Source: Escherichia coli (GTDB lineage: Bacteria; Pseudomonadota; Gammaproteobacteria; Enterobacterales; Enterobacteriaceae). Taken from it: a stretch of DNA of 64,000 nt. A model generated the notes under the pieces. The model saw only the letters and a list, made by a program, of their open reading frames with translations. It made no database searches and had not been told where the DNA came from. The stretch lies in the NCBI RefSeq assembly GCF_044324785.1, contig NZ_CP172127.1; one strand, given 5' to 3'. A program made the translations under genes and the position numbers. Positions 301 to 64,000 of this stretch are shown here, piece after piece; the stretch's first letter is position 1, and each line of letters starts with the position of its first letter.

Positions 301-310
301 AAAACCCCTC

Positions 311-1329: not shown

Positions 1330-1413
1330 AACAAATTAAGTTATTTTTTGTAAGTTATTTTGATGATATTCGACATGCATCACGCTTTTTGCCGCTTTTG
1401 CTGTGTTAGTTTG

Positions 1414-1428
1414 CTTTCAAAATGAAAG
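1414..1428. promoter_or_regulatory. Candidate operator: palindrome CTTTCA-aaa-TGAAAG sharing the TTTCA/TGAAA half-sites
   Basis: Second inverted repeat with the same half-site, ~55 bp upstream of the aldolase start; function inferred. Confidence 0.3.
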
Positions 1429-1455
1429 TGAAGATTCTGTTTCTTCATTTTGTAA

Positions 1456-2337
<882 letters not shown>

Positions 2338-2372
2338 TACGTTGTACCCTACAAAAACAATGAGGATTGTTT

Positions 2373-3263: not shown

Positions 3264-3280
3264 TAAACATCTTCATTTCA

Positions 3281-3307
3281 CAACAAAACGTTATCGACGT
3301 TTTGTTG
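3281..3307 (+). other. Intercistronic stem-loop between the binding-protein and ATPase genes
   Basis: Perfect 10-bp inverted repeat CAACAAAACG-ttatcga-CGTTTTGTTG, 17 bp upstream of the ATPase start. Confidence 0.45.
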
Positions 3308-3323
3308 TGACACCGAGGTCATT

Positions 3324-4823
3324 ATGACGGATGTTATTCTTGATGTTTCGCATATTGCGAAGACATTTGGTCATGTTCAGGCATTAAAAAATATTACACT
3401 CTCTTTACGTAAAGGGCGGGTGCATACTTTATTAGGCGAGAATGGTGCCGGTAAATCGACATTAATGAAAATACTCGCCGGTGTTTATCCGCCAACCCAG
3501 GGAACGATAACACTACGTGGTGAAACCATCACCATTAATAATCCGCAGCATTCTCGCCAGTTAGGGATTGCGATTATTTTTCAGGAACTGAGCCTGAGTA
3601 ATAATATGACCGTGGCGGAAAATATCTATGCCAATAATGAACCGCGACGTTTTGGCATTATTAATGATAAAAAAATGCTCGCAGATTGCCAGAATCTCCT
3701 CGCGGAACTGGGCATCCCTCTGGATCCGCTGGAAATGGTCGGCAATATGTCGATGGCACATAGGCAACTGGTAGAAATTGCCAAAGCCTTAAGCTATGCA
3801 GCGGATGTCGTGATTATGGATGAACCGACATCTTCGCTAAGTGATAATGAAGCAGAGATTCTGTTTAACATTATTGAGAAATTAAAGCAGCGAGGTTGTG
3901 CGGTTATTTATATCTCTCATCGCATGGATGAAATTATGCGGATTTCAGATGATATTTCGGTGATCCGCGACGGTGAGTATATCGCTACGCATGAAAAGAA
4001 AAACAGTGATATCCAGCATTTGATTGCCCAAATGGTTGGTCGGGAAATGAAAAATATTTGGCCAGCACGTCTTGGGGAAAAGCCGGATGAAAATGTTCCT
4101 GCAAAACTGGAAGTAAAAAACCTTTCCCATCCCTCGCTTTTTAAAGAGGTCAGTTTCGCTGTGCGTCCGGGGGAAGTCCTTGGATTTTTTGGCCTGGTGG
4201 GAGCCGGGCGTTCCGATGTGATGAAGGCGCTATTTGGCCTCGTTTCGTATCACGGAACTGTGTTGATTGATGGTAAGGAAGTCAGGATCGCTAATCCCAA
4301 ACAGGCTATTGATCATGGCATTGCTTTTGTGACCGAAAACCGCAAGGAAGAAGGGTTAGTGCTGATGCACGACGTCAATATGAACACGCACCATGTGGCG
4401 TTTCAATATAACGCTTCGCGGATGGGACTCATCAATCACCGACAAGAAGAGGCGAAGACGCTGCAATCTATTGCCAGAATGAACACTAAAGTGAGTTCTG
4501 TACATCAGGCAGTGGGAGCGCTGAGCGGCGGTAATCAACAGAAAATCGTGTTATCGAAGTGGCTGGAGAAAACTCCGCGTATTTTATTGCTCGATGAGCC
4601 AACGCGCGGAGTGGATGTCGGCGCAAAATTTGAAATCTATAACGTGATACGTCAACTGGCTGCGGCAGGGACAGCAATTATTCTGGTGTCCTCTGAACTG
4701 CCAGAAGTCATGGCACTTAGCGATCGTCTGGTGGTAATGCGTAATAAAACGATTGCCGATATTTATTCATGTGAAAATTTAACGCAGACACAGGTAATGA
4801 CCGCTGCAACAGGAGTACGTTAA
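3324..4823 (+). CDS. Sugar ABC transporter ATP-binding protein with two nucleotide-binding domains (RbsA/MglA-like)
   Basis: 499-aa ORF with two Walker A motifs (GENGAGKST and GLVGAGRS) and two LSGGxQQ-type signatures; AT-rich. Confidence 0.85.
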   Translation: MTDVILDVSHIAKTFGHVQALKNITLSLRKGRVHTLLGENGAGKSTLMKILAGVYPPTQGTITLRGETITINNPQHSRQLGIAIIFQELSLSNNMTVAENIYANNEPRRFGIINDKKMLADCQNLLAELGIPLDPLEMVGNMSMAHRQLVEIAKALSYAADVVIMDEPTSSLSDNEAEILFNIIEKLKQRGCAVIYISHRMDEIMRISDDISVIRDGEYIATHEKKNSDIQHLIAQMVGREMKNIWPARLGEKPDENVPAKLEVKNLSHPSLFKEVSFAVRPGEVLGFFGLVGAGRSDVMKALFGLVSYHGTVLIDGKEVRIANPKQAIDHGIAFVTENRKEEGLVLMHDVNMNTHHVAFQYNASRMGLINHRQEEAKTLQSIARMNTKVSSVHQAVGALSGGNQQKIVLSKWLEKTPRILLLDEPTRGVDVGAKFEIYNVIRQLAAAGTAIILVSSELPEVMALSDRLVVMRNKTIADIYSCENLTQTQVMTAATGVR

Positions 4824-5813
4824 ATGACAGAGAAAACTCTTGCCAGTCCGAAACCTTCGGAAATACCCATTGCAAATAATTTTAAAAAAGTCTTCAGGCA
4901 ATATGGCGGTATCCTCAGTGGAATGGTGGTGTTAATCATTCTGTTCAGTTTTATTAATGACAGTTTTTTTACTGCCAATAACATTACTAATATTATTCTT
5001 CAGGTTTCGATAATTGCAATTACCGCCTATGGAATGACTTATGTACTTTTGCTTGGCGATATTGATTTATCGGTCGGTTCAACCATTGCATTGATTGGCA
5101 CATTTGCTGCGCTTGGGGCTTCATGGGGAATTCCATTTATTTTATTGGTCCCATTATCCATTATTGCAGCCCTGGCTCTGGGGATGATAAATGGTGGCTT
5201 GACGGCTATAGCGGGTATCCCTTCGTTTATTGTCACCGTTGCTACTATGGGGATCTTCCGTGGTATCGCTTATATAGTGACCGATGGTATGCCCATCATG
5301 ATTAAAGATGATGCCTTTCTGGCGCTGGGGAATGGAGAATTTCTCTATATACCTATTCCAATCTGGATATTAATTATCTTATTGCTGATTAACCATTTCA
5401 TTCTTACTAAAACAACCTTTGGACGAAAAATTTATATCACTGGTGGTAATAAAGAAGCGGCAGTTTATTCAGGGATAAATGTCACCCGCTTGAAAATAAA
5501 AGTCTTTATGATTACAGCTGTGCTGGCAGGTATCAGCGGGATGATCCTCGCGTCACGCCTTTATTCCGGGCAACCGAATTCCGCGTTGAGCTACGAACTG
5601 GATGCTATTGCCGCGGCTGTACTGGGAGGCACCAGCCTGAACGGCGGCTATGGAACCGTGGTGGGGACGGTGATCGGCGCATTAACCATCGGCGTTATTA
5701 ATAATGGCATGAACTTAATGAATGTTCCCTATTTTTACCAGATGGTGGTTAAAGGATTAGTCATTCTTGTAGCCGTTTATTTTGACGTAAGAAATAAAAG
5801 AAAACGCAGCTAA
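4824..5813 (+). CDS. Sugar ABC transporter permease (RbsC/AraH-like)
   Basis: 329-aa hydrophobic ORF; ATG directly follows the ATPase TAA, implying translational coupling. Confidence 0.85.
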   Translation: MTEKTLASPKPSEIPIANNFKKVFRQYGGILSGMVVLIILFSFINDSFFTANNITNIILQVSIIAITAYGMTYVLLLGDIDLSVGSTIALIGTFAALGASWGIPFILLVPLSIIAALALGMINGGLTAIAGIPSFIVTVATMGIFRGIAYIVTDGMPIMIKDDAFLALGNGEFLYIPIPIWILIILLLINHFILTKTTFGRKIYITGGNKEAAVYSGINVTRLKIKVFMITAVLAGISGMILASRLYSGQPNSALSYELDAIAAAVLGGTSLNGGYGTVVGTVIGALTIGVINNGMNLMNVPYFYQMVVKGLVILVAVYFDVRNKRKRS

Positions 5814-5834
5814 TCATTTCAAGGAATTAATCAT

Positions 5835-6797
5835 ATGAGTAAGGTCTTCACAATTGGAGAAATTCTGGTTGAAATTATGGCGAGTAAAATCGGCCAGCCA
5901 TTTGATCAACCAGGTATCTGGAACGGCCCTTATCCCAGTGGTGCGCCCGCTATTTTTATCGACCAGGTGACACGTCTTGGCGTTCCGTGCGGCATCATTA
6001 GTTGTGTGGGGAATGATGGCTTTGGTGATATTAATATACATCGTCTGGCTGCTGACGGTGTGGATATCAGGGGGATTTCAGTCTTACCTCTGGAAGCTAC
6101 CGGGAGTGCCTTTGTTACTTATCATAACTCTGGCGATCGCGATTTTATTTTTAATATCAAGAATGCCGCTTGCGGTAAATTATCGGCGCAGCATGTTGAT
6201 GAAAATATTCTGAAGGACTGTACCCATTTTCATATTATGGGTTCATCCCTGTTTTCATTCCATATGGTAGACGCAGTAAAGAAAGCGGTAACCATTGTAA
6301 AGGAGAATGGTGGCGTTATTTCTTTCGACCCTAATATTCGGAAAGAGATGCTCGATATTCCAGAAATGCGTGACGCCCTCCACTTTGTTCTTGAGTTAAC
6401 AGATATCTATATGCCCAGCGAGGGAGAAGTGTTGCTCTTGTCGCCACACTCGACACCGGAGCGTGCAATCGCTGGTTTTCTTGAAGAAGGTGTTAAAGAG
6501 GTGATTGTGAAGCGCGGCAATCAAGGTGCCAGTTACTACTCCGCGAATGAGCAGTTTCATGTTGAGAGCTATCCGGTGGAAGAAGTTGACCCGACCGGTG
6601 CGGGAGACTGCTTTGGTGGCGCGTGGATTGCCTGCCGCCAGCTAGGGTTTGACGCCCATCGGGCATTACAATATGCCAACGCCTGCGGTGCACTGGCGGT
6701 AACCCGACGTGGTCCAATGGAGGGAACGTCTCGCCTTGCGGAAATCGAAGCGTTCATCCAGCGCCATGACATGTCCATTCGGGAAGCAGCACAATGA
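5835..6797 (+). CDS. PfkB-family sugar kinase (ribokinase/fructokinase-like)
   Basis: 320-aa ORF; AAGGA upstream; N-terminal glycine-rich motif and C-terminal DPTGAGDCFGGAW anion-hole/catalytic motif typical of the PfkB family. Confidence 0.8.
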   Translation: MSKVFTIGEILVEIMASKIGQPFDQPGIWNGPYPSGAPAIFIDQVTRLGVPCGIISCVGNDGFGDINIHRLAADGVDIRGISVLPLEATGSAFVTYHNSGDRDFIFNIKNAACGKLSAQHVDENILKDCTHFHIMGSSLFSFHMVDAVKKAVTIVKENGGVISFDPNIRKEMLDIPEMRDALHFVLELTDIYMPSEGEVLLLSPHSTPERAIAGFLEEGVKEVIVKRGNQGASYYSANEQFHVESYPVEEVDPTGAGDCFGGAWIACRQLGFDAHRALQYANACGALAVTRRGPMEGTSRLAEIEAFIQRHDMSIREAAQ

Positions 6798-7840
6798 AAA
6801 ACGAAATTTGGTCGTGGATTGGCGATCTCTCGCAGGTTGCCGGAATTAAACACTATGAGTTACGTAGTGGCAGAGCAAAGGGGACAGAAGCGTTTGATGT
6901 CCGTACCGGTGCGGGACTGGCATTTACGGTGGTAAAAGATCGCGCGCTGGATATTGCATGGGCCAGCTACAAGGACACTGCGCTCTCTTTTATCACCCCC
7001 AACGGCATTGTCGCCCCCGCTTTTTTTGAGTCTCAGGGCAACGGGTTTTTACGTAGCTTCTACGCGGGGTTACTGACTACCTGCGGACTTAGCTACATTG
7101 GCACGCCCTGTGAGGATGACGGAGAAACGCTGGGGTTACACGGGCGTTTGGCTGCGACTCCAGCAGAAGAGGTGGGGTATCGCACAGAACGGACCGACGA
7201 CGGCATTGAATTTGTCATCAATGGCAAAGTACGGGAAACACGATTGTTCGGTGAAAATCTGACGCTGGAAAGGACCATTCGCTGCCGCTATGGCGAAAAT
7301 GTGCTGCGCATTGAAGACAAGGTGACTAATCATGGTTTCACCCGCCAGCCGCTGCAAATTCTTTATCACTTTAATTACGGCTGGCCTTTATTATCGCCAC
7401 AGGCAGAAATTTTGCTGTCGGCTAAAAGCGTAACGCCACGAACTCCGCATGCGGCGGAAGGGATAGCCAGTCATCTGGAGATTTGTACCCCACAGCCCGG
7501 TTTTGACGAGCAGGTTTACTATCTCACGTTGAATAGTGACAGTCAGGGGATGAGTAAAGTTGCGCTGGTGAACGCTGAACTGGGGTGGGGAATTTACGAG
7601 AAATTCGACACCATGCAGCTACCCAACTTTATCCAGTGGAAAAATTTAGGCGCGGGTGAATATGTTATGGGGCTGGAGGTCAGCAATAGTTTTCCTGACG
7701 GTCGTGATAAAGAACGAGCGCAGGGGCGTCTGCCCTTTATAGAGCCAGGGGAAACAAAGACATACTGCTTTGAGCTGGGAATTGTTGATGGCGATGCTGA
7801 AATTAGCGCGTTGAAAGCGGAAATTGCAAGCTACCGTTAG
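6794..7840 (+). CDS. Aldose 1-epimerase (mutarotase)-like protein, uncharacterised
   Basis: 348-aa ORF overlapping the kinase stop by ATGA; contains LYHFNYGWP and GLEVSNSFPD...PGE motifs reminiscent of galactose mutarotase-fold proteins; assignment from motif recall only. Confidence 0.5.
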   Translation: MKNEIWSWIGDLSQVAGIKHYELRSGRAKGTEAFDVRTGAGLAFTVVKDRALDIAWASYKDTALSFITPNGIVAPAFFESQGNGFLRSFYAGLLTTCGLSYIGTPCEDDGETLGLHGRLAATPAEEVGYRTERTDDGIEFVINGKVRETRLFGENLTLERTIRCRYGENVLRIEDKVTNHGFTRQPLQILYHFNYGWPLLSPQAEILLSAKSVTPRTPHAAEGIASHLEICTPQPGFDEQVYYLTLNSDSQGMSKVALVNAELGWGIYEKFDTMQLPNFIQWKNLGAGEYVMGLEVSNSFPDGRDKERAQGRLPFIEPGETKTYCFELGIVDGDAEISALKAEIASYR

Positions 7841-7850
7841 CTAACGGCAA

Positions 7851-7886
7851 TAAAAACGCCGGGCAGCGTTAACAGGCCCGGCGTTG
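7851..7886 (-). terminator. Rho-independent terminator downstream of accC, shared with the convergent sugar operon
   Basis: 10-bp stem AACGCCGGGC/GCCCGGCGTT with 11-nt loop, followed on the minus strand by TTTTTATT. Confidence 0.5.
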
Positions 7887-7931
7887 ATTACGTTCTTTGC
7901 TAAGCGCGATGAAAACACCGCGCGTCACAAA

Positions 7932-9762: not shown

Positions 9763-10525
9763 GAGTGGGTTCCGTACTCTTTGTTTAGTGTGATTGTGAC
9801 AGGCGTTTCACCGCCGTCTGTAAAGCGTATGCCCCGACAGCTGTATGCATAGCGATAAATTCCAGCAGGCCGGGACGCCGGTCTATTTTGCCCCAGAGTG
9901 TCAATGTTAGACTTGACGGACATTGTGCAGCGATCTGCTGCTATCCTCCGGCAAAAAACAAAATATACCTTCGTTGCGCCAATGTCACCTTTTCCGCAGC
10001 GCAAAAACTGCGTCAGGGAGGACGAGGTCGCACATTATAACGATTTCGTAGCAATTGGCAGCTAAATACTGGTCTTATCAGGGAAGATAATCAACAGCTA
10101 ACATGTAAATAACCTTCAACACCGTGTAATTTGCAACAAGCCGCACAATTCACGAAATTAGCGCCATCATCGACGGAACTTCTTATAACGTAAGGCTAAA
10201 AGCTGTAAAGCCAGCCCTGCGAAGATGAGGGGCTGCAATGAGATAATCTTCACAGACCACAAATAATGTAGGGATGCCAGGATCGCGACAAGATCGACGA
10301 CATTACGCAGCGGTTGCTGGGGATTGCCCAATTTTCACTGCATCGTCTGGATAAATGTGAATGCTAAAGCACGCAAAATCAACCGCCTGACAATGCTCAG
10401 CATGAAATAGGTTTAACTGGTTAATTTGTAATCAAACAAAATCAGATTATTCCCCCCATTTTGCAGAAGGTAAACTGTTTTGTCAGGCGGCAGTACGGCT
10501 ATGTGATGCACTGCCGCGTGACAAT

Positions 10526-10554
10526 AAAAAAGCCGATTTGGTAGCAAAATCGGC
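10526..10554 (-). terminator. Rho-independent terminator after the 276-aa gene
   Basis: Stem GCCGAT(TTG)/(CAAA)ATCGGC followed on the minus strand by a T-run (plus-strand AAAAAA at 10526-10531); a second hairpin GCGGCAGT...ACTGCCGC lies at ~10487-10517. Confidence 0.5.
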
Positions 10555-10619
10555 TTCGGTGAGTTTGCAGCATTCATCACATACTCCGACAAGCTTTTTC
10601 AAGCATGACGGAGGTTGCG

Positions 10620-11450
10620 TTAATGCAAGGTTTCTACCCAGGGATAAAAGTGACCGTTACGGCGGATGAATATCTGTGTTGTCAGAGGATGGTCATCCTC
10701 ACGGAAGCATTGTTCTGTTAACTGTCGTAATGCGCTGAGATTTGCTGGCTGATCATTGTGGGTGAAAAACAGTTTTCCTCTGGAGGGAACTGTCACTAAC
10801 AGGTCGCCGCATTCAGGATCGGGTGATTGCACCCAAAGATCGTCAATGAGCATCAGACTGGGCTCATAAGTACCCCCTGCGGAGATAACGGCAACTTTTC
10901 CATCGTTTGCGCCGGTATCAACGATTTCAGCCGTAACTTCCGGCAATATTTGCTTCAAATTACTGATGGCTTGTTCGCGGTCAATGGTCACTTCGCAGCG
11001 CATCAGATAGCGCATGGTTTCGCTACCGTCTTCAGCAAACAGGATAATTAACTCATCGTTAAAGTCTTCCCAGGCAAAATCAAGCGAGGCGTTGAGGACC
11101 TCTGGATCAGACTCATACTGGCTAAGCTGTTGGCGAACGGTATCCAGCCAGGCTTTTTCTTTAATCACCGGGACAATACAGCGCCCGGTCGGCAGCATTT
11201 CTGCAAGCTGTTTCAGCATATCTGCAGCCACTTCTTCCAGCGGGTCTGGTGCGGCTTGATAACGTTTGTAAGCATCATCAAGGGTGATTTCCACCGTTTG
11301 GTGACCCGTATCAATGCGCATCAATTTATGGTCAGTCGAAATCATGACTTTCCAGTTTGGATGATGTTGTACAACTTCCTGACCAAGGTGTTCGACGAAA
11401 GCTGTCAGGCTAACCGCTTTTCCCGTTAACCGATTGAATAATGATTTCAA
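10620..11450 (-). CDS. Hypothetical protein, 276 aa, unknown function
   Basis: Long uninterrupted ORF; TTG start with GAGAGGG ~8 nt upstream, 37 bp downstream of acuI in the same orientation; own terminator; acidic, no predicted membrane segment; I cannot assign a family by recall. Confidence 0.6.
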   Translation of the reverse strand: MKSLFNRLTGKAVSLTAFVEHLGQEVVQHHPNWKVMISTDHKLMRIDTGHQTVEITLDDAYKRYQAAPDPLEEVAADMLKQLAEMLPTGRCIVPVIKEKAWLDTVRQQLSQYESDPEVLNASLDFAWEDFNDELIILFAEDGSETMRYLMRCEVTIDREQAISNLKQILPEVTAEIVDTGANDGKVAVISAGGTYEPSLMLIDDLWVQSPDPECGDLLVTVPSRGKLFFTHNDQPANLSALRQLTEQCFREDDHPLTTQIFIRRNGHFYPWVETLH

Positions 11451-46652: not shown

Positions 46653-46727
46653 ATTTATTAGCTCAGGTGTGACCTGACCCATCTTTGGCACAGAGCCAAA
46701 CCTGAACTGACGGACCGCTCTGTGCCA

Positions 46728-47069
46728 TTACCTGACGTTGTATTCTTTTATGTTAACACCCTTGATGCTGTATATACCTGTCCGCTTAATTCGCTTACCC
46801 TTTTTATTCGTAATAGTTGCTGTAAGTGTACTGCAGCGAATGGAATGACGTTCATCAATCACCAGCCGAATTGCTTCTGAAGCATCTTCCACCTCTAGAA
46901 GGTCGTGAGTCTTATTTAAGCCGAATGGAACAAGGTGGAAGGCAGTTTTTCCAGATGATTTTCTGGTTATTTTTACTGGATACAACACATCACCACTTTT
47001 ATGGATTAATTCAAGCTGTTCAATGTAAATCATAGCAACTTTCCTTCGTTTATCTGCATGAATATACAA
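46728..47069 (-). CDS. Orphan hypothetical protein in AT-rich DNA (113 aa from TTG; more likely 101 aa from the ATG at 47033)
   Basis: ORF in ~40% GC sequence; internal ATG at 47033 has AGGAAA 6 nt upstream; lysine-rich C-terminus; no family recognised; coding status unproven. Confidence 0.4.
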   Translation of the reverse strand: MYIHADKRRKVAMIYIEQLELIHKSGDVLYPVKITRKSSGKTAFHLVPFGLNKTHDLLEVEDASEAIRLVIDERHSIRCSTLTATITNKKGKRIKRTGIYSIKGVNIKEYNVR

Positions 47070-47120
47070 ACCGAAAATAGGAGATGCAATACAAAAGCTG
47101 TGGAAATATCAAACAGCCTC

Positions 47121-47378
47121 TCAATTTGGCAGGCAGCGTCTGCCAAATCTTTGCCGATGGAAATTCTGCAGACGGTGTCTGCAGAACTTCAACGTGTTGA
47201 TAAAAAGGTAAAAAAGCCTAATTTGGCGTAAGTTTTTTGCAGAGAACCCACGCTTATATCTTAGACTTAAATCCTTTGATAGTCGCTTGATTAGCTGCGC
47301 ACCATACGCAGCCCTAGCCTCGCCACCTTGTTCAAATTCGACAATCCGTCGGCCAATTTCCCAGTACGTCGCGGTCAT
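47121..47378 (-). pseudogene. yhcG: Frameshifted, truncated remnant of yhcG (DUF1016 PD-(D/E)XK nuclease-like)
   Basis: First ~57 codons (MTATYWEIGRRIVEFEQGGEARAAYGAQLIKRLSKDLSLRYKRGFSAKNLRQ) read like the YhcG N-terminus; the frame then degenerates and stops at 85 aa while a plausible continuation (LQTPSAEFPSAKIWQTLPAKL) is in another frame; the ~290 C-terminal codons of the 375-aa K-12 protein are absent. Confidence 0.6.
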
Positions 47379-47487
47379 TAACGCGTTAACACTACGTACC
47401 GTTTCCGTCCGGGCACTATCGAACTGGTGAATAATGTCTCCATGTACCCGCTTGTAGCCTAAATATCGCTACTTTATTTTTAACCAA

Positions 47488-48153
47488 TTAATAATATTTC
47501 AGTGTGATTTCCGCTGTGCCACTGAATTCCATCTTGTCCGTAACATTCAACTCCGACATCGCATTAATCGCAGAGCTGATTTTAAGTGGCACAGTTAGTG
47601 TGGTCAGATTTTGCGGTGAAGATGTACCAAATGCGTAAACGGTTGTGTTATCTGGGCTGACGATCTGCCAATTCCCAGTAGACTTTATCCATGTTGGATT
47701 GCTGCTATCAGTTGCTGAAAGTACAGAAACCCCTGTTCCGTTATCGACGGTAATCCCCATATTATCAATCATAATGGCCCATGCTCCGACCGGCTTATTT
47801 TTGAATAACCCCAGCCCCAGCAGGTCGCTTTGTGTTAATGCGCTACCGAGCGGAATTTTTGCCGCCATTGCAGTACCAGAATTGAGATCTTTAATAAGAA
47901 TCCCTGGGGCAGCGCTGCCTGGACAGCTAATTGATAGTTGGGTATTTTGATCTGGTAAGCGTGTGGCATCCTGGGTATTCATATTTGCAACAATATAGGT
48001 TCCAAGATTAATGACGCTATTCGTCAGGTTAATTGAACAGGAAGGCGGTTCCACCAACGCGCTAACATGGATGGTGATGTCTGCGGCACTGACATTGGTG
48101 GAACAGAAAAGCGTTATCAGGCCAATCAGCGATATTTTATTCATGACTATCAC
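47488..48153 (-). CDS. yhcF: Fimbrial-like protein (DUF1120)
   Basis: 221-aa ORF, GTG start overlapping the yhcE stop, signal peptide, C-terminus FSGTAEITLKYY. Confidence 0.75.
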   Translation of the reverse strand: MIVMNKISLIGLITLFCSTNVSAADITIHVSALVEPPSCSINLTNSVINLGTYIVANMNTQDATRLPDQNTQLSISCPGSAAPGILIKDLNSGTAMAAKIPLGSALTQSDLLGLGLFKNKPVGAWAIMIDNMGITVDNGTGVSVLSATDSSNPTWIKSTGNWQIVSPDNTTVYAFGTSSPQNLTTLTVPLKISSAINAMSELNVTDKMEFSGTAEITLKYY

Positions 48154-48722
48154 TCCGGTCGGCTATTCAGAGAAATGTTCAGGTCGTTGGTGAGCGTAAG
48201 TAAGTCTTGAGGGTTAATATCCTTGCCTGTGATCAATGGCAGTATCGCCAGTTGTACACTGGCCTGTGTTAGCGCCTGTTCGCGATCATGCTGCATAAAA
48301 GATATACCTTCCGAAGGTAATAAAACAATATTAGATGTACCGCCGTCTTGAAGTTGGTTGCTCACGGAAACACGAGACACAGAGGCACTCTGACCGCCTA
48401 TTGTCGGATTAGAGGCTTTGACTCGTATCACGCTCTGCTCGCCAAACTTAAATAGTGATTTTCCTTTATATGTCAATTTATTACCGTCAATCATGACGTG
48501 TACATAATGTGGTGAATCGCATTGAATATTCAGCGTAATATAGCGTTCTGGCAACGCAATACCATCCACCACCGTGGTATTGATGGTGTGTAATGTGCGT
48601 GAAGAACGATCAACCTTTCCCCAGGCAATATCCTGTTGGTTGGCTGTCACCTTACAGTTCTCGGCCAACGTAAATTGACTAAAAAAACAGGTTATTAGCA
48701 GAAGAGCCAAAGATGTTTTCAT
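48150..48722 (-). CDS. yhcE: Fimbrial-like protein, intact
   Basis: 190-aa uninterrupted ORF with signal peptide MKTSLALLLITCFFSQFTLA; no IS sequence present. Confidence 0.75.
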   Translation of the reverse strand: MKTSLALLLITCFFSQFTLAENCKVTANQQDIAWGKVDRSSRTLHTINTTVVDGIALPERYITLNIQCDSPHYVHVMIDGNKLTYKGKSLFKFGEQSVIRVKASNPTIGGQSASVSRVSVSNQLQDGGTSNIVLLPSEGISFMQHDREQALTQASVQLAILPLITGKDINPQDLLTLTNDLNISLNSRPE

Positions 48723-48734
48723 CTTGTTATTTCC

Positions 48735-51176
48735 TTATAAACAATGAGCTTGAACCGTTTCGTATACCACACTATCAGGCGCATCTTTGGGTAACGTATA
48801 TTGTAGATGGCATATTTTGCCATCAGGAAGAATAACCTTAAGAGTGTCCGTATTATTTTCAATGTTATTAATAAAGAAGGTGCCTTCTTCAACAACGGAG
48901 GTCAGATAGTTTCCCTGTGCGGTATGAACAGAACTATTCAGAGGTAAAAGGGCATTATTGAATCGCACATCCTGGAACATCACCCGACGTGCTGATAGCA
49001 CGGTGAAGGAAATACTTCCGACTGAATAACGCCCTTGTTTAACTTCTTGAGTAGCGTTTGCAATATCGGTTTTTTTAGCCAATGATTTGGGGTCAATTTC
49101 AACAATTGCCGTCTGGTACGGAGGTAAAACGGGCACAACAGCTTGCCCCCACCAGTCAGTCCATGCGGCACCCTGTGGCGTTTGAATTTGGACGCCAGCC
49201 TGTTTTTGGCTCAATTGGGCAATGGCCCAGGTATCAGCGATCCTGTCCGGGGAAAAGGTTATTCCATCCTTGTGCAGAGCGATCCCGCCATCAAGCGTGG
49301 CAGAAGAATAATGGCTGTCCGAGCCGCTTTGTCCCGCAGATAGTCCGAGGCGAGTATAATGTAGGTTAGTATTAAGGCCACCGCTGGCATTATTGCCACT
49401 ATCTTGGCTACGTTCATAGCTGACATAATAACTACTGTCTTTCAGGAAGGCGCCAGAAAGCGTTGAGCCAATGCGAGTATCATTATTTTCATGTCGCACC
49501 CAACTACTGGAATAATGGTTACCTAAAGGCACGTAAACAGTAAGGTTAAGTGAGTCTTCACTGTCATTTCCTTTTTCATGCCGGTAATAAAAATTGGTGG
49601 AGAAATATTTAAACTGCCTACTCCAGTTTATTGTGGTGTTAGTTGAATCACCGTCACGATAATAGCTTTTATTATTGGTATAACTTAGGCTAATTCCACC
49701 TAATAAATCGTGATACCAGGTCAGCGATCCAGTAAGCTCATTTTTATTGTAGGCATAGAATTTATTGTCATCTCCATAATCCCATGGTTGGTCGCTGATA
49801 TCGTCATTTTGCGTGGAATCAAGCAAATCGCGATAACCTCGCTCACTCCAGGTGTCGGTAACGGAAAAGCTTAAATTATCCAGCAGGTCTGCACCTAACG
49901 TGATCGCTGCCTGATTCCCTCGCTTATTATGATTATCATCGACCGCACTTCGGAGCTGAATAGAAGTTGACCAGTGAGTGAAAGGCTGAAAATCAACCCC
50001 GCCAGCAAAAGCATAATAGTTATTTGCGACGATGCCGCCTGTCGATAAAGTATAAGTATTAAAAACCGGCTGACTCCAGGCACCGCTTAACACCATCGGT
50101 TCGTCATCTTCTGCACCAACCTCGCGAACCCGGCCTACGGCAAAATTGTAGTTTGGTGTTCCTGTCACCGTTCGACGGAAAGAATCGCTAAAAACAGTAA
50201 ACTGGTCGCTACTCCCATCGCTTTCGATAACTGTCACATCCAGGTTACTGCTTTGATTCAGGACTGGAACGTTGGTTAAAGTAAATGGTCCCATTGGAGC
50301 CAAAGTAGAATAAATAAGCTGTTTATTTTGTCGGATTTCAATGCGTGCTTGCGATGATTTGACATTACCAGAAACCATCACATCATTACGTCTGTTTGGG
50401 GTTAGCGAAATATCAGGTTGTATCTGTACACCGTAAAGTGAGGCGCCGGAAAGTAGGGGGTTGGCAAGGTTGATCCCGCCTGCCTGCATATTTATTTTGC
50501 TTGCGGTGAAAGTATGTTCGGCATAAGTATAGAGATTGTCGAGATTGTGATCGCCATTAGATAAGGCAACCGAGGTACTATTACGTATTATCCAGTCGCC
50601 CATATTGATGCCGCTTTGTAGCGCAGCACTGGTATAATTATCATTATCGCCGTTATATTTATTAATATTATGCAATAATGAATAGTTTATAGTCGCCCCC
50701 GTCCCTCCAGTGGTGTAACCGCTAACCTCATCTGGGGATTGTAAGGCAATCGCCTCTGTCGGTAATAACACAAAGACTTTGTATTGCGCCGAATCGAAAT
50801 GTACCACCGCTGATGGATAGAGCATCTGCAATGTTTGGCAACGGTCGTCAGTTTCCGTTAAATTTTGTGGGATGATGACACCAGCTCTTTGCATCCAGTT
50901 AGTGTCAGCGCAAAGTTCGCCTTGTGGGTCAATAGTGATGGTAACATTGACATTTCGGTGACCATTAATGTCCATATTGACCTGTTGCGTGCCGGGAGGA
51001 AGACGTGCTTCTTTTGAAAAATAAGCCGCAACATTTTTATCTATACCAAATGAGCGTAACGCATCGCTATTGAAGTTAAGAGCGGTCTCCATCTCTTCCT
51101 GCGACGAAGCTGCCATAGCTATAATAGGAATAAAATGCAGCACTAGAAAGATCTTGTTGAGGGGAAAATATTTCAA
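48735..51176 (-). CDS. yhcD: Fimbrial outer-membrane usher
   Basis: 813-aa ORF with usher-type beta-barrel pattern and conserved C-terminal Cys pair; start may be at an internal Met. Confidence 0.9.
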   Translation of the reverse strand: MKYFPLNKIFLVLHFIPIIAMAASSQEEMETALNFNSDALRSFGIDKNVAAYFSKEARLPPGTQQVNMDINGHRNVNVTITIDPQGELCADTNWMQRAGVIIPQNLTETDDRCQTLQMLYPSAVVHFDSAQYKVFVLLPTEAIALQSPDEVSGYTTGGTGATINYSLLHNINKYNGDNDNYTSAALQSGINMGDWIIRNSTSVALSNGDHNLDNLYTYAEHTFTASKINMQAGGINLANPLLSGASLYGVQIQPDISLTPNRRNDVMVSGNVKSSQARIEIRQNKQLIYSTLAPMGPFTLTNVPVLNQSSNLDVTVIESDGSSDQFTVFSDSFRRTVTGTPNYNFAVGRVREVGAEDDEPMVLSGAWSQPVFNTYTLSTGGIVANNYYAFAGGVDFQPFTHWSTSIQLRSAVDDNHNKRGNQAAITLGADLLDNLSFSVTDTWSERGYRDLLDSTQNDDISDQPWDYGDDNKFYAYNKNELTGSLTWYHDLLGGISLSYTNNKSYYRDGDSTNTTINWSRQFKYFSTNFYYRHEKGNDSEDSLNLTVYVPLGNHYSSSWVRHENNDTRIGSTLSGAFLKDSSYYVSYERSQDSGNNASGGLNTNLHYTRLGLSAGQSGSDSHYSSATLDGGIALHKDGITFSPDRIADTWAIAQLSQKQAGVQIQTPQGAAWTDWWGQAVVPVLPPYQTAIVEIDPKSLAKKTDIANATQEVKQGRYSVGSISFTVLSARRVMFQDVRFNNALLPLNSSVHTAQGNYLTSVVEEGTFFINNIENNTDTLKVILPDGKICHLQYTLPKDAPDSVVYETVQAHCL

Positions 51177-51187
51177 GATAGCATTCC

Positions 51188-51889
51188 TTAATGATCAACA
51201 GGTAGATTTACACTGTTCACTTTTATTCCATAACGAGATAAAGGCTGTAGGATGACTTGATTAATTGGCAGCGAACTGGATAAAGTAGCCGTTAACGTTT
51301 CACCAGGTAAAATAAAGGTACGCAGCAGGTCTACCATTTTATTATTTTCAGGTATGATGATTTCAGGAGATAGACGAATCACGTAAGCGCCGGTATTTAC
51401 AACCTGTAAATTCGTACCTTGTTGTTTAAATTTTAAATCGCCCCATGGTTCTTTGTTTTTTTTAATGTTTTTTGGCGTGATGATGACAGGGATATCCTGT
51501 GTGTAAATAACATTCAGCTTAATGTTATCAGTTTTTTTTTCATCAGCATTTTTTGATGGAATACCACTAAATTGGGCTCGCATCATATGTTCTACCATAA
51601 GTGGTTTAGTCGTTTGTAATATGAAACGAACTTGTTGCCTTTTTCCCGATTCGACGCGTACGACAGGTTGGGTTGGTATTAGTTTAATACCACTGTTTTT
51701 TTCTTCATCAATCAGGCTGGTTCTGACATATAGCAATGCCGCATCGCTGCCAGTATTAGTCACATTAATACTGGCTTCGCCATCTTCCTCGTAGACTTCC
51801 AGTACTGGCGTTTCGGGCTGCATACCAGCGGTCCAACCATGGGAGGAGAAAAGACAGTAGCCGAAGAATAAATAACGTAAATATTTCAT
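51188..51889 (-). CDS. yhcA: Periplasmic fimbrial chaperone (PapD-like)
   Basis: 233-aa ORF with signal peptide and chaperone pattern. Confidence 0.9.
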   Translation of the reverse strand: MKYLRYLFFGYCLFSSHGWTAGMQPETPVLEVYEEDGEASINVTNTGSDAALLYVRTSLIDEEKNSGIKLIPTQPVVRVESGKRQQVRFILQTTKPLMVEHMMRAQFSGIPSKNADEKKTDNIKLNVIYTQDIPVIITPKNIKKNKEPWGDLKFKQQGTNLQVVNTGAYVIRLSPEIIIPENNKMVDLLRTFILPGETLTATLSSSLPINQVILQPLSRYGIKVNSVNLPVDH

Positions 51890-52007
51890 AAATTATAAAC
51901 GCATAATATAAAAAGAACGATACGCCCACAGAATGTGTAGGCGTTGTTTTATTAAATTATTCATGTATGTTATTTTTCAGTTAAAACTAAAAAATAACAG
52001 CAATAAA

Positions 52008-52754
52008 TTATTTATATTCCAGGAAGACTTCAAAGCCACCTGTATACTCTTCACGCCCGGTCACATCAGCGAAAGAGGCTTTATCCAGCAGCGCGACCGT
52101 TGTTTGTAGCGGGAAAACAACTGTTTTAGCTGGCGTGATGGAAGTCTTTCCTGGTTCTGCAACAGAAATACGACGAGTATTGGTTAAAGATACTGCACCA
52201 GCTGAATCTTTAGGCACGATGGTCCATGGCTGGTCAAGGTCGGTGCTATAGCTATAGATCAGCACTTTTTCAACTGGGGTAGGGTTTGCAACAGTGGTGA
52301 TTGTCGGGGTTCTGAATACAGTCCAGAATGCTCCAGCACCTTTGCCGCCAGCACGCAGTAGTGGGTTGATCTGATTTTTTGAAGAGCCGAGAGTTAAATC
52401 AACTGTGCGACCATCTGCAGTGTTAATGATGGTAGGATTGCCGTTAGAAAGCGTTTTTACTTTGCTTTCATCAGCGGCATTGAGATGATTAGTTCTTAGT
52501 GCAACATACATATCGGTCGGACAATCAACTTTAAGCTGACTTTCTTTGATCATCGGTAGGTTATTCGATGCATCGGTAAGTTGATCAACAGCCTGAGTAC
52601 CAAAATCCAGAGTGTTACCCTCAATAATACCCAGTGAACATCCCGAAGGGACTAAAAGACCTTTCACGGTAATGGTTGCATCCGCAGCCAGAGCTGAACC
52701 GGTGGTAATAGCCAGAATCGCTACGCTGAGCGTAAGCTTTTTAACTAATGACAT
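52008..52754 (-). CDS. gltF: Periplasmic DUF1120 protein GltF
   Basis: ORF track 52008-52790; signal peptide MSLVKKLTLSVAILAITTGSALA favours the start at 52754; C-terminus GGFEVFLEYK resembles yhcF. Confidence 0.7.
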   Translation of the reverse strand: MSLVKKLTLSVAILAITTGSALAADATITVKGLLVPSGCSLGIIEGNTLDFGTQAVDQLTDASNNLPMIKESQLKVDCPTDMYVALRTNHLNAADESKVKTLSNGNPTIINTADGRTVDLTLGSSKNQINPLLRAGGKGAGAFWTVFRTPTITTVANPTPVEKVLIYSYSTDLDQPWTIVPKDSAGAVSLTNTRRISVAEPGKTSITPAKTVVFPLQTTVALLDKASFADVTGREEYTGGFEVFLEYK

Positions 52755-53200
52755 GTTGTTAAATTCCATGTTAAGTAAATGTTGTATCAAGACGTGAAAA
52801 CATTGTTTTTAATAAAGCTTTGAGAGTATACAAAATATTTCTTTAAATAAATTTTAAAATATATATGTTTTATTTTTTACATAATTTATGTGAATTGTTT
52901 TTTTGTTATTTTGGGATCGGGTGTCACTTTTTAGGTGTTATTTATTCGATTTATGAATATTTACTTTAAAAAATCAGAATATATAAAGACAGTTTTTTCG
53001 GGGATTGGCTCGTATTGTAAGAGCTGAAATTGTTTACTCTGTGGATTCGAGGAAGAAAGGTACTAAGACAATTATTTGTCTTGGTTTGCCCATCTATAAT
53101 TGAAAATGCGTTACGAGTTGTGGAAGATGAAGATAGATGAGGTGAGGATCCAGCTCCCTGTCATCTGTTATGCTGTCAGGGAACCGGAAAGTGCTAGGGC

Positions 53201-60790: not shown

Positions 60791-63127
60791 ATGAAGCAAA
60801 TTCGTCTGCTGGCGCAGTATTATGTTGACCTGATGATGAAGTTAGGTCTGGTGCGCTTCTCAATGTTGCTGGCGCTGGCCCTCGTCGTTCTTGCCATTGT
60901 GGTACAAATGGCAGTGACCATGGTGCTGCATGGTCAGGTCGAAAGCATTGATGTTATTCGTTCTATCTTCTTTGGTTTGCTGATTACGCCGTGGGCGGTC
61001 TACTTTCTATCGGTGGTTGTCGAGCAACTGGAGGAGTCACGGCAACGTCTGTCACGGCTGGTGCAAAAACTGGAGGAGATGCGCGAGCGCGATTTGAGCC
61101 TCAACGTTCAGTTAAAAGATAATATTGCCCAGCTAAATCAGGAAATCGCCGTTCGTGAAAAAGCGGAAGCAGAACTGCAGGAAACCTTCGGCCAACTGAA
61201 AATTGAAATTAAAGAGCGCGAAGAGACACAAATTCAGCTCGAACAGCAATCCTCATTCTTACGTTCCTTCCTTGATGCTTCACCCGACCTGGTTTTTTAT
61301 CGTAACGAAGATAAAGAGTTTTCCGGCTGTAACCGCGCGATGGAGCTGCTGACCGGAAAAAGCGAAAAACAACTGGTTCACCTGAAACCTGCTGATGTTT
61401 ACTCACCGGAAGCCGCTGCGAAAGTCATTGAAACCGATGAAAAAGTGTTCCGTCATAATGTGTCACTGACCTATGAGCAGTGGCTGGATTATCCCGACGG
61501 ACGCAAAGCCTGCTTTGAAATCCGTAAAGTGCCGTACTACGACCGCGTGGGTAAACGTCACGGTTTGATGGGCTTTGGTCGCGACATTACCGAGCGTAAG
61601 CGGTATCAGGATGCACTTGAACGCGCCAGCCGCGACAAAACGACGTTTATCTCCACCATCAGTCACGAATTGCGTACACCGCTGAACGGTATCGTCGGCC
61701 TGAGCCGCATTCTGCTGGATACCGAACTCACCGCCGAGCAGGAAAAATATCTCAAAACCATCCATGTTTCTGCCGTCACGCTGGGGAATATCTTTAACGA
61801 TATTATCGACATGGATAAGATGGAACGGCGCAAGGTCCAGCTTGATAATCAACCGGTTGATTTCACCAGCTTCCTTGCCGATCTGGAAAATCTCTCCGCA
61901 TTGCAGGCGCAACAAAAAGGATTGCGCTTTAATCTGGAGCCTACGCTGCCATTACCGCATCAGGTCATTACCGACGGGACGCGTTTACGGCAAATCCTGT
62001 GGAACCTCATCAGTAACGCCGTCAAATTCACCCAGCAAGGCCAGGTTACCGTGCGCGTGCGCTACGATGAAGGCGATATGCTGCATTTTGAAGTGGAAGA
62101 CTCTGGTATCGGCATTCCGCAGGATGAGCTGGATAAAATCTTCGCCATGTATTACCAGGTGAAAGACAGTCATGGCGGTAAACCTGCCACCGGCACCGGT
62201 ATTGGTCTGGCCGTTTCTCGTCGTCTGGCGAAAAATATGGGCGGCGATATTACGGTTACCAGCGAACAGGGCAAAGGTTCAACCTTTACGTTGACGATCC
62301 ACGCACCGTCGGTGGCAGAAGAGGTCGATGATGCGTTTGATGAAGACGATATGCCTTTACCGGCGCTGAATGTGCTGCTGGTGGAAGACATTGAACTGAA
62401 CGTGATTGTCGCGCGTTCTGTGCTGGAAAAATTAGGTAACAGCGTTGATGTCGCCATGACCGGCAAGGCGGCGCTGGAGATGTTTAAACCGGGCGAATAC
62501 GACCTGGTATTGCTGGATATTCAGTTGCCAGATATGACCGGGCTGGATATCTCTCGTGAACTGACGAAGCGTTATCCGCGCGAGGATTTACCGCCGCTGG
62601 TGGCCTTAACCGCTAACGTGCTGAAAGACAAACAAGAGTACCTCAATGCTGGAATGGATGATGTGCTGAGTAAGCCGCTTTCTGTTCCGGCGCTAACCGC
62701 GATGATCAAGAAATTCTGGGATACCCAGGATGATGAGGAGAGTACGGTGACGACAGAAGAGAACAGTAAATCAGAAGCATTGCTCGATATTCCCATGCTG
62801 GAACAGTATCTCGAACTTGTAGGACCGAAGCTGATCACCGACGGGTTAGCGGTGTTTGAGAAGATGATGCCGGGCTATGTCAGCGTGCTGGAGTCGAATC
62901 TGACGGCGCAGGATAAAAAAGGCATTGTTGAGGAAGGACATAAAATTAAAGGTGCGGCGGGGTCAGTGGGGTTACGCCATCTGCAACAGCTGGGTCAGCA
63001 AATTCAGTCTCCTGACCTTCCCGCCTGGGAAGATAACGTCGGTGAATGGATTGAAGAGATGAAAGAAGAGTGGCGTCACGACGTAGAAGTGCTGAAAGCG
63101 TGGGTGGCAAAAGCCACTAAAAAATGA
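60791..63127 (+). CDS. arcB: Aerobic respiration control sensor kinase
   Basis: 778-aa ORF with membrane helices, PAS, HisKA (SHELRTPLN), ATPase, receiver and Hpt domains. Confidence 0.95.
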   Translation: MKQIRLLAQYYVDLMMKLGLVRFSMLLALALVVLAIVVQMAVTMVLHGQVESIDVIRSIFFGLLITPWAVYFLSVVVEQLEESRQRLSRLVQKLEEMRERDLSLNVQLKDNIAQLNQEIAVREKAEAELQETFGQLKIEIKEREETQIQLEQQSSFLRSFLDASPDLVFYRNEDKEFSGCNRAMELLTGKSEKQLVHLKPADVYSPEAAAKVIETDEKVFRHNVSLTYEQWLDYPDGRKACFEIRKVPYYDRVGKRHGLMGFGRDITERKRYQDALERASRDKTTFISTISHELRTPLNGIVGLSRILLDTELTAEQEKYLKTIHVSAVTLGNIFNDIIDMDKMERRKVQLDNQPVDFTSFLADLENLSALQAQQKGLRFNLEPTLPLPHQVITDGTRLRQILWNLISNAVKFTQQGQVTVRVRYDEGDMLHFEVEDSGIGIPQDELDKIFAMYYQVKDSHGGKPATGTGIGLAVSRRLAKNMGGDITVTSEQGKGSTFTLTIHAPSVAEEVDDAFDEDDMPLPALNVLLVEDIELNVIVARSVLEKLGNSVDVAMTGKAALEMFKPGEYDLVLLDIQLPDMTGLDISRELTKRYPREDLPPLVALTANVLKDKQEYLNAGMDDVLSKPLSVPALTAMIKKFWDTQDDEESTVTTEENSKSEALLDIPMLEQYLELVGPKLITDGLAVFEKMMPGYVSVLESNLTAQDKKGIVEEGHKIKGAAGSVGLRHLQQLGQQIQSPDLPAWEDNVGEWIEEMKEEWRHDVEVLKAWVAKATKK

Positions 63128-63239
63128 CCCCGGCTAGACCGGGGTGCGCGAATACTGCGCCAACACCAGGGAAATCTTGGCTGCGCCGTAAATTATTATG
63201 ATGAGTTACAAGGGCACAGCACTGTTTTTCAGGCCGCAC
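63119..63239 (-). ncRNA. arcZ: ArcZ small regulatory RNA
   Basis: Minus-strand sequence GTGCGGCCTGAAAAACAGTGCTGTGCC...GGCGCAGTATTCGCGCACCCCGGTCTAGCCGGGGTCATTTTTT matches ArcZ as I recall it, including the terminator hairpin plus T-run; convergent with and overlapping the last codons of arcB. Confidence 0.85.
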
Positions 63240-63357
63240 GCAGTTAAGATAGCAAAACTTAAATGATTTGTTACATGAATCAGTTAAATGTGTGATGCGT
63301 AGCATTTTTATTAAAAAAATTAATGTGTTTCAGTCAATTGCGAAAGGATGATCACAA

Positions 63358-64000
63358 TGAAGAAAATTGGCGTAATTCTGAGCGGATGCGGCGTCTATGA
63401 CGGTTCTGAAATTCATGAAGCGGTGTTGACGTTGTTAGCTATTTCACGCAGCGGTGCACAGGCGGTCTGCTTTGCACCGGATAAACAGCAGGTTGATGTT
63501 ATCAACCATTTAACTGGCGAAGCGATGACGGAAACGCGCAATGTGCTGATTGAAGCGGCACGAATAACGCGCGGTGAAATCCGTCCTCTGGCCCAGGCTG
63601 ATGCTGCTGAACTGGATGCGTTGATTGTGCCGGGGGGTTTTGGCGCGGCAAAGAATTTAAGCAATTTTGCCAGTCTTGGTAGCGAATGCACCGTTGACCG
63701 TGAATTAAAGGCGCTGGCACAAGCGATGCATCAGGCCGGAAAACCGCTTGGTTTTATGTGTATTGCCCCGGCGATGCTGCCGAAAATTTTCGATTTCCCG
63801 CTGCGTTTGACCATCGGTACTGATATTGATACCGCAGAAGTGCTGGAAGAGATGGGCGCGGAGCATGTGCCGTGTCCTGTCGATGATATCGTGGTTGATG
63901 AAGACAATAAGATTGTCACCACCCCGGCATATATGCTGGCGCAGAACATTGCAGAAGCGGCGAGCGGCATTGATAAGCTGGTTTCCCGCGTGCTGGTCCT
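63358..64000 (+). CDS. elbB: DJ-1/PfpI-family protein ElbB, 5' portion (runs off the right edge)
   Basis: Open frame from ATG 63358 (AAAGGA RBS) to the window end, MKKIGVILSGCGVYDGSEIHEAVL...; absent from the ORF track because it has no stop. Confidence 0.85.

Follow-up and report, generated by a model that had tools for sequence, protein, structure and literature searches.

The small RNA gene arcZ overlaps the last codons of arcB in Escherichia coli

In the window, by which we mean the whole 64 kb stretch of Escherichia coli DNA that was analysed, the coding sequence of arcB runs into a small RNA gene on the opposite strand. The features of this locus, in window coordinates, are the following.

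60791-63127, plus strand: arcB coding sequence, a sensor histidine kinase of 778 aa ending ...ATKK-stop (from the ORF list)
63119-63239, minus strand: arcZ gene, the 121-nt full-length ArcZ (SraH, RyhA) sRNA, with its transcription start at the G at 63239 (from Rfam RF00081 and K-12 identity)
63119-63127, both strands: 9-nt overlap of arcB (AAA AAA TGA) and arcZ (UCA UUUUUU) (from the sequence and the K-12 annotation)
63119-63124, minus strand: U-tract of 6 U, the complement of arcB Lys777 and Lys778 (AAA AAA) (read from the sequence)
63127-63145, minus strand: intrinsic-terminator hairpin ACCCCGGUCUAGCCGGGGU (from the terminator scan and fold)
63119-63174, minus strand: 3′ part, the 56-nt processed active ArcZ (nt 66-121) (from K-12 identity; processing from PMC11331407 and PMC4152358)
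63146-63168, minus strand: invariant core TGGTGTTGGCGCAGTATTCGCGC (ArcZ nt 72-94), which belongs to the target-pairing region (from exact matches in at least 120 species)
63180-63220, minus strand: 5′ stem-loop of full-length ArcZ, an 8-bp stem GCUGUGCC/GGCGCAGC closing a long loop (from the Rfam alignment's structure line)
63246-63295, minus strand: putative arcZ promoter region (hexamers read by eye)
62355-63118, minus strand: stretch of arcB crossed by arcZ-sense transcription before a Rho termination region (from PMC7815308 supplement 2)

We are highly confident that the feature is E. coli arcZ, an Hfq-dependent sRNA read towards arcB, and that its gene, overlap and terminator are as listed. 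The Rfam covariance model for ArcZ (RF00081) matched the minus strand at 63132-63239 with 120.8 bits (E = 4e-27; gathering score 66), covering model positions 1-106 of 106 and thus its full length, and this was the sole Rfam match in the window. When 63119-63239 (minus strand) was aligned with K-12 arcZ (b4450; NC_000913 3350577-3350697), all 121 of 121 positions were identical, with zero mismatches in either the seed or the terminator. The original prediction that this sRNA is ArcZ therefore agrees with both the covariance-model search and the 100% identity to K-12. The likeness goes beyond the RNA itself: in K-12 as in the window, arcZ lies between arcB and elbB, converges on arcB, shares 9 nt with its coding sequence and has the same terminator. 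The 281 nt compared with K-12 differ at one position alone, window 63302, which precedes the arcZ transcription start by 63 nt, so that the K-12 promoter is that of the window except for one base at −63. The window strain is nevertheless one other than K-12, its flanks being ∼97–98.5% identical to K-12; three other blocks of the window are variable. Of 5426 complete E. coli genomes, 5416 contained the 311-nt arcZ locus, and in 5395 of them its identity was at least 99%. The finding is thus correct, already known and ordinary for E. coli.

It was also right that ORF-based annotation misses the sRNA. Two RefSeq/PGAP E. coli records contain no arcZ between arcB and elbB, while the hand-curated K-12 record does carry the feature; since the automated records omit it, sRNA-aware annotation is needed. 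RefSeq records annotate the identical ArcB protein as WP_000809774.1. The mechanical ORF list does contain a 62-codon ORF at 63117-63305 (minus strand) that spans arcZ, and a small protein encoded instead of, or in addition to, the sRNA was considered and rejected. Transcription of ArcZ has been mapped to start 66 nt downstream of the ATG of this ORF, and from genus to genus the 5′ half of the RNA changes freely in both sequence and length, the indels being such as to disrupt any reading frame. No coding sequence is annotated at arcZ in K-12 or in the RefSeq records. The probability of such a protein is negligible.

The arcB ORF ends ...ACT AAA AAA TGA, and the K-12 annotation gives an equal overlap, arcB starting at 3350689 and arcZ ending at 3350697 (9 nt). 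The terminator scan called an 8-bp stem at 63145-63127 (minus strand) followed by CATTTTTT, that is, a G+C-rich stem and then CA and six U. The last base of the hairpin, 63127, is the complement of the final base of the arcB TGA. The T-run of the terminator had been described as the complement of the two final lysine codons and the stop codon of arcB, of which the lysine part stands and the stop codon part does not: in the complement of TGA, UCA, the U is the outermost base of the stem and CA is the spacer ahead of the U-run (63124-63119). In at least 120 species, 34 distinct hairpins were found, in which stem positions 6 and 7 alternate between G-C and A-T while the outer A-U pair is invariant. 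These compensatory changes support the predicted terminator hairpin of ArcZ.

Experimental mapping in K-12 agrees with this placement. By Term-seq under three growth conditions, the dominant ArcZ 3′ end was at K-12 3350696, equivalent to window 63120, and was classed as antisense to arcB, inside the arcB coding sequence (PMC7815308 supplement 1). Thus, the proposal that arcB and arcZ are convergent and overlapping is borne out by a Term-seq 3′ end antisense to arcB and is identical to the curated K-12 annotation. The overlap itself is already published (Argaman 2001; 2024 review PMC11331407). Taking the arcB coding sequence and the mapped ArcZ 3′ end, the mature arcB and ArcZ RNAs have at least 8–9 nt of complementary sequence in common.

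The remainder of ArcZ divides into a constant 3′ part and a variable 5′ part. The core TGGTGTTGGCGCAGTATTCGCGC was present exactly in at least 120 species-level genomes, from about 45 Enterobacterales genera, and was unchanged throughout a 17-genus alignment; the 5′ stem-loop is the variable part of the RNA, its sequence differing between genera in the same alignment. The cut between the two parts, which we take to fall at AAGA/UUUCC (GA/UUU being ArcZ nt 64-68; the slash marks the predicted site), fits the RNase E motif RN/WUU. ArcZ is processed to its 56-nt 3′ form (PMC11331407, PMC4152358), and in the literature it is this form that acts in trans on rpoS and other mRNAs.

Upstream of the transcription start, a putative −35 hexamer, GTAACA (63274-63269), a 17-nt spacer and an extended −10 element, TGcTATCTT (63254-63246), could be read by eye. 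Across 17 genera, from Escherichia to Providencia, GTAACA is kept together with most of the −10 block, and an upstream TCACA block (63295-63291) is invariant in the 17-genus alignment. A consensus promoter scan found no sigma-70 site near arcZ, missing the putative promoter because the hexamers match at 8 of 12 positions only. It is from conservation that this candidate assignment draws its support. ArcA-P is reviewed as binding the arcZ promoter and repressing arcZ (PMC11331407); this reported direct repression is in conflict with a genome-wide ArcA ChIP study, in which arcZ had no ArcA site upstream of it (PMC3798270). Searching the arcZ promoter by eye for an ArcA box (direct TGTTA repeats 11 bp apart) gave no convincing match.

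The arrangement was then compared across Enterobacterales in a sample of at least 120 loci, for which an exact match to the 23-nt core was required and the end of ArcB was anchored by tblastn; the sample is biased and the counts ignore phylogeny. Among the matches listed, a convergent ArcB C-terminus lay beside the ArcZ core in 120 of 120 loci, and AAA AAA followed by TGA or TAA abutted the ArcZ hairpin in 102 of 120 species. ArcZ of other Enterobacterales (Salmonella, Erwinia, Photorhabdus/Xenorhabdus, Yersinia, Providencia and others) has the same 3′ core as the window, and the hairpin, U-tract and AAA AAA stop register are as in the window in those 102 of the 120 species among the matches listed. 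The U-tract is typically 7–8 nt in these bacteria, compared with 6 nt in the window, and the 5′ half of their ArcZ is of another sequence and length.

Counted over 100 arcB ends, the two last Lys codons were AAA in 200 of 200 cases, against 69% AAA in the rest of arcB. The antepenultimate codon ended in A in 86 of 100, 15 of these codons being AGA, against 17% in the rest of arcB. The same 100 ends encoded 65 different 8-residue ArcB tails. There is, then, a constraint at the nucleotide level on the last three arcB codons, which apart from this leaves the encoded tail free to change. Given this combination, the ArcZ terminator appears to dictate the C-terminal -KK of ArcB. The sRNA terminator also appears to bias the preceding arcB codon to NNA, rare AGA included; together, these two effects are the firmer but smaller part of the idea, taken up below, that the register has been selected.

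The overlap is not universal. Among the at least 120 loci it was absent in eight Pantoea loci, Mixta and Chimaeribacter, where arcB stops before the terminator, and Pectobacterium carotovorum is reported to be without it as well (PMC11331407). In Pluralibacter-like and Morganella genomes the overlap consists of the stop codon alone. Two frame-shifted variants, in Enterobacter sichuanensis (arcB ending ...KKMTPA-stop) and in Pantoea sp. 1.19, may be genuine or may stem from homopolymer errors in sequencing. Since both arcB and arcZ persist where the overlap is missing, it is not essential for keeping the two genes, and in this sample the naturally non-overlapping loci show that the protein does not require the -KK end.

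The original prediction had linked the overlap to a reported reciprocal regulation between ArcZ and arcB. Such reports do exist: in secondary sources (PMC11331407, PMC4152358, PMC3937726), mutual repression of ArcZ and arcB mRNA is credited to Mandin & Gottesman 2010, with ArcZ destabilizing arcB mRNA and arcB transcription destabilizing ArcZ. A pairing model for the two RNAs is described in one review as 'speculated' (PMC11331407). The nine A/U-rich bases of the overlap, which are also the Hfq-binding tail, are too few and cannot form a stable duplex. Since a 9-nt duplex is useless alone, antisense action needs either arcB RNA that extends past the stop codon or arcZ RNA that extends past the terminator.

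For arcB, the terminator scan found no terminator-like site on the plus strand from 62900 to 64000, and the Term-seq table lists no arcB-strand 3′ end (PMC7815308 supplement 1). With no recognizable intrinsic terminator, polymerase transcribing arcB would be expected to enter arcZ, and antisense pairing would need such read-through; read-through of the arcB transcript into arcZ is likely. In the other direction, a Rho termination region lies at K-12 3351461, about window 62355, where bicyclomycin raised the downstream reads from 20 to 418 (Rho score 15.2, p about 1e-68; PMC7815308 supplement 2). The arcZ-sense transcripts inside arcB could come from ArcZ read-through or from internal antisense starts.

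The last two arcB Lys codons thus template the U-tract of the ArcZ terminator, and the base of the hairpin lies on the arcB stop codon. Beyond this, the observations suggest the following arrangement. Transcripts of arcB would continue through arcZ, giving up to 121 nt of complementarity, collisions of converging polymerases, or both, while arcZ-sense transcription would in part enter arcB until halted by Rho. The 9-nt coding overlap would then be the visible footprint of this arrangement and not the pairing site itself. We lean, by a modest amount, towards a read-through antisense mechanism of this kind as the basis of the mutual effect of ArcZ and arcB.

The overlap might instead be an accident of gene packing that became frozen and plays no part in regulation, with all cross-talk passing through ArcA-P at the arcZ promoter and through the trans effects of ArcZ. 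The shared 9 bp would be hard to change because any indel harms either the terminator or the reading frame, and this dual-coding constraint by itself accounts for the conserved register of what is an overlap of nine A/U-rich bases only. Its repeated loss without loss of either gene (Pantoea, Mixta and Chimaeribacter, and Pectobacterium according to PMC11331407) fits an accident, as does the published observation that a 5′ arcB translational fusion in Erwinia amylovora was unresponsive to ArcZ. That fusion, however, is without the arcB 3′ end and is hence no test of a mechanism acting there. The mutual destabilization of ArcZ and arcB mRNA, as given in the secondary sources (PMC11331407, PMC4152358, PMC3937726), and the expected entry of polymerase into arcZ from an arcB gene that has no terminator of its own also argue against a mere accident, which we regard as possible but rather unlikely. 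A different possibility is that the 63127-63145 hairpin works as an intrinsic terminator in both directions, for arcZ and for arcB, so that the RNAs overlap by about the hairpin length only. The stem is nearly palindromic and folds equally well in the arcB-sense RNA, where an A-tract lies upstream of it. On both strands one would expect a hairpin followed by a U-run, but read in the direction of arcB the hairpin has GCGCGAAUACUG behind it, also given as GCGCGAAUAC, and no U-tract. The scan called the site on the minus strand only, and the curated Term-seq list (PMC7815308) has no arcB-strand 3′ end at the hairpin. Termination of arcB at the hairpin is thus very unlikely; even without it, 3′ exonucleases could trim arcB read-through RNA back to the hairpin, leaving about 27 nt of complementarity to ArcZ. 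A search of the literature on arcZ and arcB for a bidirectional terminator or convergent transcription returned nothing specific.

A more novel reading would hold that the exact register has been selected because arcB and arcZ are mechanically coupled, beyond the overlap being hard to change. One way would be that ribosomes as they terminate on arcB, or polymerases as they complete it, occupy the very sequence that templates, or pairs with, the Hfq-binding tail of ArcZ. The register that places the stop codon complement between hairpin and U-tract was found in about 85% of the at least 120 species sampled, in several families. We consider selection for coupling unlikely; if it were true, ArcB expression would directly tune the 3′-end formation or stability of ArcZ, and vice versa.

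A related system in E. coli is the sRNA GadY, whose gene faces the 3′ end of the mRNA of the regulator gadX. Like ArcZ, GadY is convergent with a regulatory gene and complementary to the 3′ end of its transcript, and it acts in cis on this neighbour, as ArcZ would. The two differ in that GadY overlaps a 3′ untranslated region and stabilizes its mRNA, whereas ArcZ overlaps codons and is reported to lower arcB mRNA. The main documented work of ArcZ is in trans, on rpoS, flhDC, mutS and other targets, by way of a seed that lies outside the arcB overlap.

It is already published that ArcZ connects the ArcB/ArcA oxygen sensor with RpoS, with motility and with mutagenesis. What the comparison modestly adds is that the terminator of ArcZ and the three final codons of arcB behave as a dual-coding unit across Enterobacterales, for which Pantoea, Mixta, Chimaeribacter and the homopolymer-shifted variants are natural test cases for a regulatory role of the overlap.

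The arcZ small RNA gene and arcB lie on opposite strands of the window and overlap at their 3' ends:

60791-63127, + strand, arcB open reading frame (ORF list), 778 aa, C-terminus ...AKATKK
63119-63239, − strand, arcZ sRNA gene

ArcZ (RF00081) was the sole above-threshold Rfam match in a scan of the whole window (63132-63239, − strand, full-length, E = 4e-27), and its 120.8 bits exceed the gathering score of 66. Alignment of window 63080-63360 (−) with its counterpart in the E. coli K-12 reference genome gave 280 identical bases out of 281. The lone mismatch, window 63302, lies 63 nt upstream of where transcription starts, and arcZ itself is identical throughout its 121 positions. The identification made in the original prediction is thus borne out by both comparisons, and its coordinates are exactly those of the annotated gene. 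In K-12, arcZ (b4450) occupies 3350577-3350697 and arcB 3350689-3353025 on the opposite strand, with 9 nt in common, and the same convergent 9-nt overlap is present here, as had been claimed. Of 5426 complete E. coli genomes, 5416 carry the locus, 5395 of them with at least 99% identity. It is a textbook case, annotated in K-12 and covered in reviews; the remark that annotation misses the sRNA is fair for automated RefSeq records. An ORF caller could instead list a mechanical ORF that takes in the arcZ promoter together with the entire sRNA:

63117-63305, − strand, 62 codons (ORF list)

This ORF is almost certainly spurious as a gene, because the 5' half of ArcZ carries frame-breaking indels between genera.

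The window is mostly collinear with K-12 3349816-3407266, reversed, at 97.4-98.5% identity, with three blocks excepted. Window 1-7931 is missing from the K-12 counterpart beside accC. By the annotation of N3, another E. coli strain, whose sequence is 100% identical across 8 kb, this block encodes a DeoR-family regulator, a tagatose-bisphosphate-family class II aldolase, two sugar kinases, an aldose 1-epimerase and a sugar ABC transporter (binding protein, ATPase and permease). No more than 1419 of the 5426 complete E. coli genomes cover most of it, and it is therefore an accessory sugar-utilisation island. Window 46654-53198 stands in for K-12 gltF-yhcA-yhcD-yhcE(IS5)-yhcF-yhcG, at a divergence beyond megablast. 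It has ORFs matching an usher of the PapC type (813 aa), a chaperone of the PapD type (233 aa) and two DUF1120 proteins, and thus represents an uninterrupted, divergent yhc chaperone-usher fimbrial allele that lacks the IS5 insertion of K-12. All that is left there of yhcG is a 275-nt remnant, 92% identical to K-12; N3 lacks the entire yhc fimbrial cluster, with yhcG adjoining gltD. In the third block (10460-11307), accB and yhdH/acuI flank an intact 276-codon ORF at 10620-11450 (−); at this place K-12 has no more than the pseudogene remnants yrdF and yrdE.

The overlap coincides with the ArcZ terminator. The 3' end of the RNA reads ...ACCCCGGUCUAGCCGGGGU CA UUUUUU, and the terminator scan reported a stem for the − strand only, which is also present in the fold of the full ArcZ RNA:

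63145-63127, − strand, ArcZ terminator stem, 8 bp, followed by CATTTTTT

The final bases of arcB are ACT AAA AAA TGA. The six U residues (63124-63119) are complementary to the two Lys codons, and the UCA of ArcZ is the complement of the TGA stop (63125-63127), its U being the outermost stem base and its CA the spacer ahead of the U-run. The original prediction had the T-run complement both Lys codons and the stop. This holds for the Lys codons, and the sentence is right in substance; its wording is slightly loose, since the stop-codon complement lies under the stem base and spacer, outside the U-run.

To compare this arrangement across Enterobacterales, exact matches to the ArcZ core TGGTGTTGGCGCAGTATTCGCGC were collected, one genome per species, giving at least 120 loci in ∼45 genera. 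A convergent ArcB C-terminus adjoins ArcZ in all 120 matches listed, and in 102 of these arcB ends in AAA AAA plus a stop, with the stop complement between hairpin and U-tract. Codons were counted at 100 of the 102 canonical loci, the other two (L038 and L088) having short flanks.

Codon usage at the arcB end and ArcZ U-tract length (n = 100 loci; raw counts, kinship ignored)
Stop codon: TGA 68, TAA 32
Terminal Lys codons AAA: 200/200, vs 69% (1651/2407) elsewhere in the arcB 3' part
Antepenultimate codon with third base A: 86/100, vs 17% elsewhere in the arcB 3' part
U-tract length: 6 nt 14, 7 nt 42, 8 nt 44

The final A of the antepenultimate codon (most commonly GAA 41, AGA 15, GGA 13 or ACA 10) makes the U-tract 7 or 8 nt long. 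The stretch of protein that separates the conserved Trp from the final KK varies freely, with 65 distinct 8-residue tails among the 100 loci, and the sequences therefore place the constraint on the arcB end at the nucleotide level, on the terminator rather than the protein. The 34 distinct hairpins all keep the outer A-U pair, and G-C alternates with A-T at positions 6 and 7 of the stem.

The exceptions take several forms. At eight Pantoea loci and in Mixta and Chimaeribacter, arcB ends 0-78 nt beyond the U-tract and the tails are not -KK; both genes are kept without overlap, which is therefore not indispensable. In three Pluralibacter-like genomes and Morganella, the overlap consists of a TAA within the U-tract only. 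At L110 (Enterobacter sichuanensis) and L020 (Pantoea sp. 1.19), an altered length of the 7-8 A run of the terminal Lys codons shifts the arcB frame past the usual stop into the ArcZ hairpin loop (L110 tail ...KKMTPA-stop), which could be real homopolymer slippage or assembly error. The arcB end appears disrupted at L096 and L116 (Ca. Erwinia dacicola).

Upstream of arcZ, candidate promoter elements were read by eye from the start at 63239, with a 17-nt spacer:

63295-63291, − strand, TCACA block, invariant in a 17-genus alignment
63274-63269, − strand, candidate −35 GTAACA
63254-63246, − strand, candidate extended −10 TGcTATCTT

GTAACA is also invariant across the 17 genera and the −10 block is mostly conserved, unlike the poorly conserved 5' half of the RNA. 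A stricter consensus promoter scan did not report the candidate arcZ promoter. From the alignment, the TCACA block and −35 region (within 63246-63295) are candidates for regulator binding. A 2024 review places arcZ downstream of arcB in reverse direction and has phosphorylated ArcA repress arcZ by binding its promoter (PMC11331407). The literature is not unanimous on direct control, because a ChIP study of ArcA across the whole genome reports no site for it upstream of arcZ (PMC3798270).

The cis-antisense reading in the original prediction agrees with reported reciprocal regulation: ArcZ represses arcB, whose mRNA is 'speculated' to destabilise ArcZ as an antisense RNA (PMC11331407), and ArcZ 'destabilizes antisense arcB mRNA' (PMC3937726). 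Public Term-seq data (Adams et al. 2021) place a dominant 3' end at K-12 3350696 (+), on the tabs of all three growth conditions, classed 'internal: arcZ; antisense: arcB' (PMC7815308 supplement 1). In the window this is the fifth U of the tract (63120), which puts the mapped end of ArcZ 8 nt into the arcB coding sequence. DirectRNA-seq with and without bicyclomycin gave a strong Rho termination region at 3351461 (+), antisense to arcB, where bicyclomycin raised downstream reads from 20 to 418 (Rho score 15.2, p ∼1e-68; PMC7815308 supplement 2). It corresponds to about window 62355, inside arcB and ∼0.76 kb past the ArcZ terminator. Thus some arcZ-sense transcription, from whatever start, extends ∼0.76 kb inside arcB before Rho normally ends it.

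On the arcB strand, the Term-seq table has no dominant 3' end, arcB being named three times, all in ArcZ rows (PMC7815308 supplement 1), and terminator scans found no terminator-like site on the + strand in 62900-64000. The hairpin also forms in arcB-sense RNA, but the usual definition of a bidirectional terminator excludes it, since GCGCGAAUACUG rather than a U-run trails it there. The downstream gene elbB is on the strand of arcB and starts at 63358. We infer that polymerases completing arcB run on into arcZ. The resulting RNA would be complementary to ArcZ in part or in full, and there would be collisions with polymerases from the arcZ promoter. Run-on of this kind would be a far better explanation of the reciprocal effects reported than the nine shared A/U bases. 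To a known locus, the analysis adds a quantified dual-coding footprint of the terminator on the last arcB codons and a catalogue of natural exceptions; the 9-nt overlap is likely a footprint of the gene arrangement rather than a pairing site.
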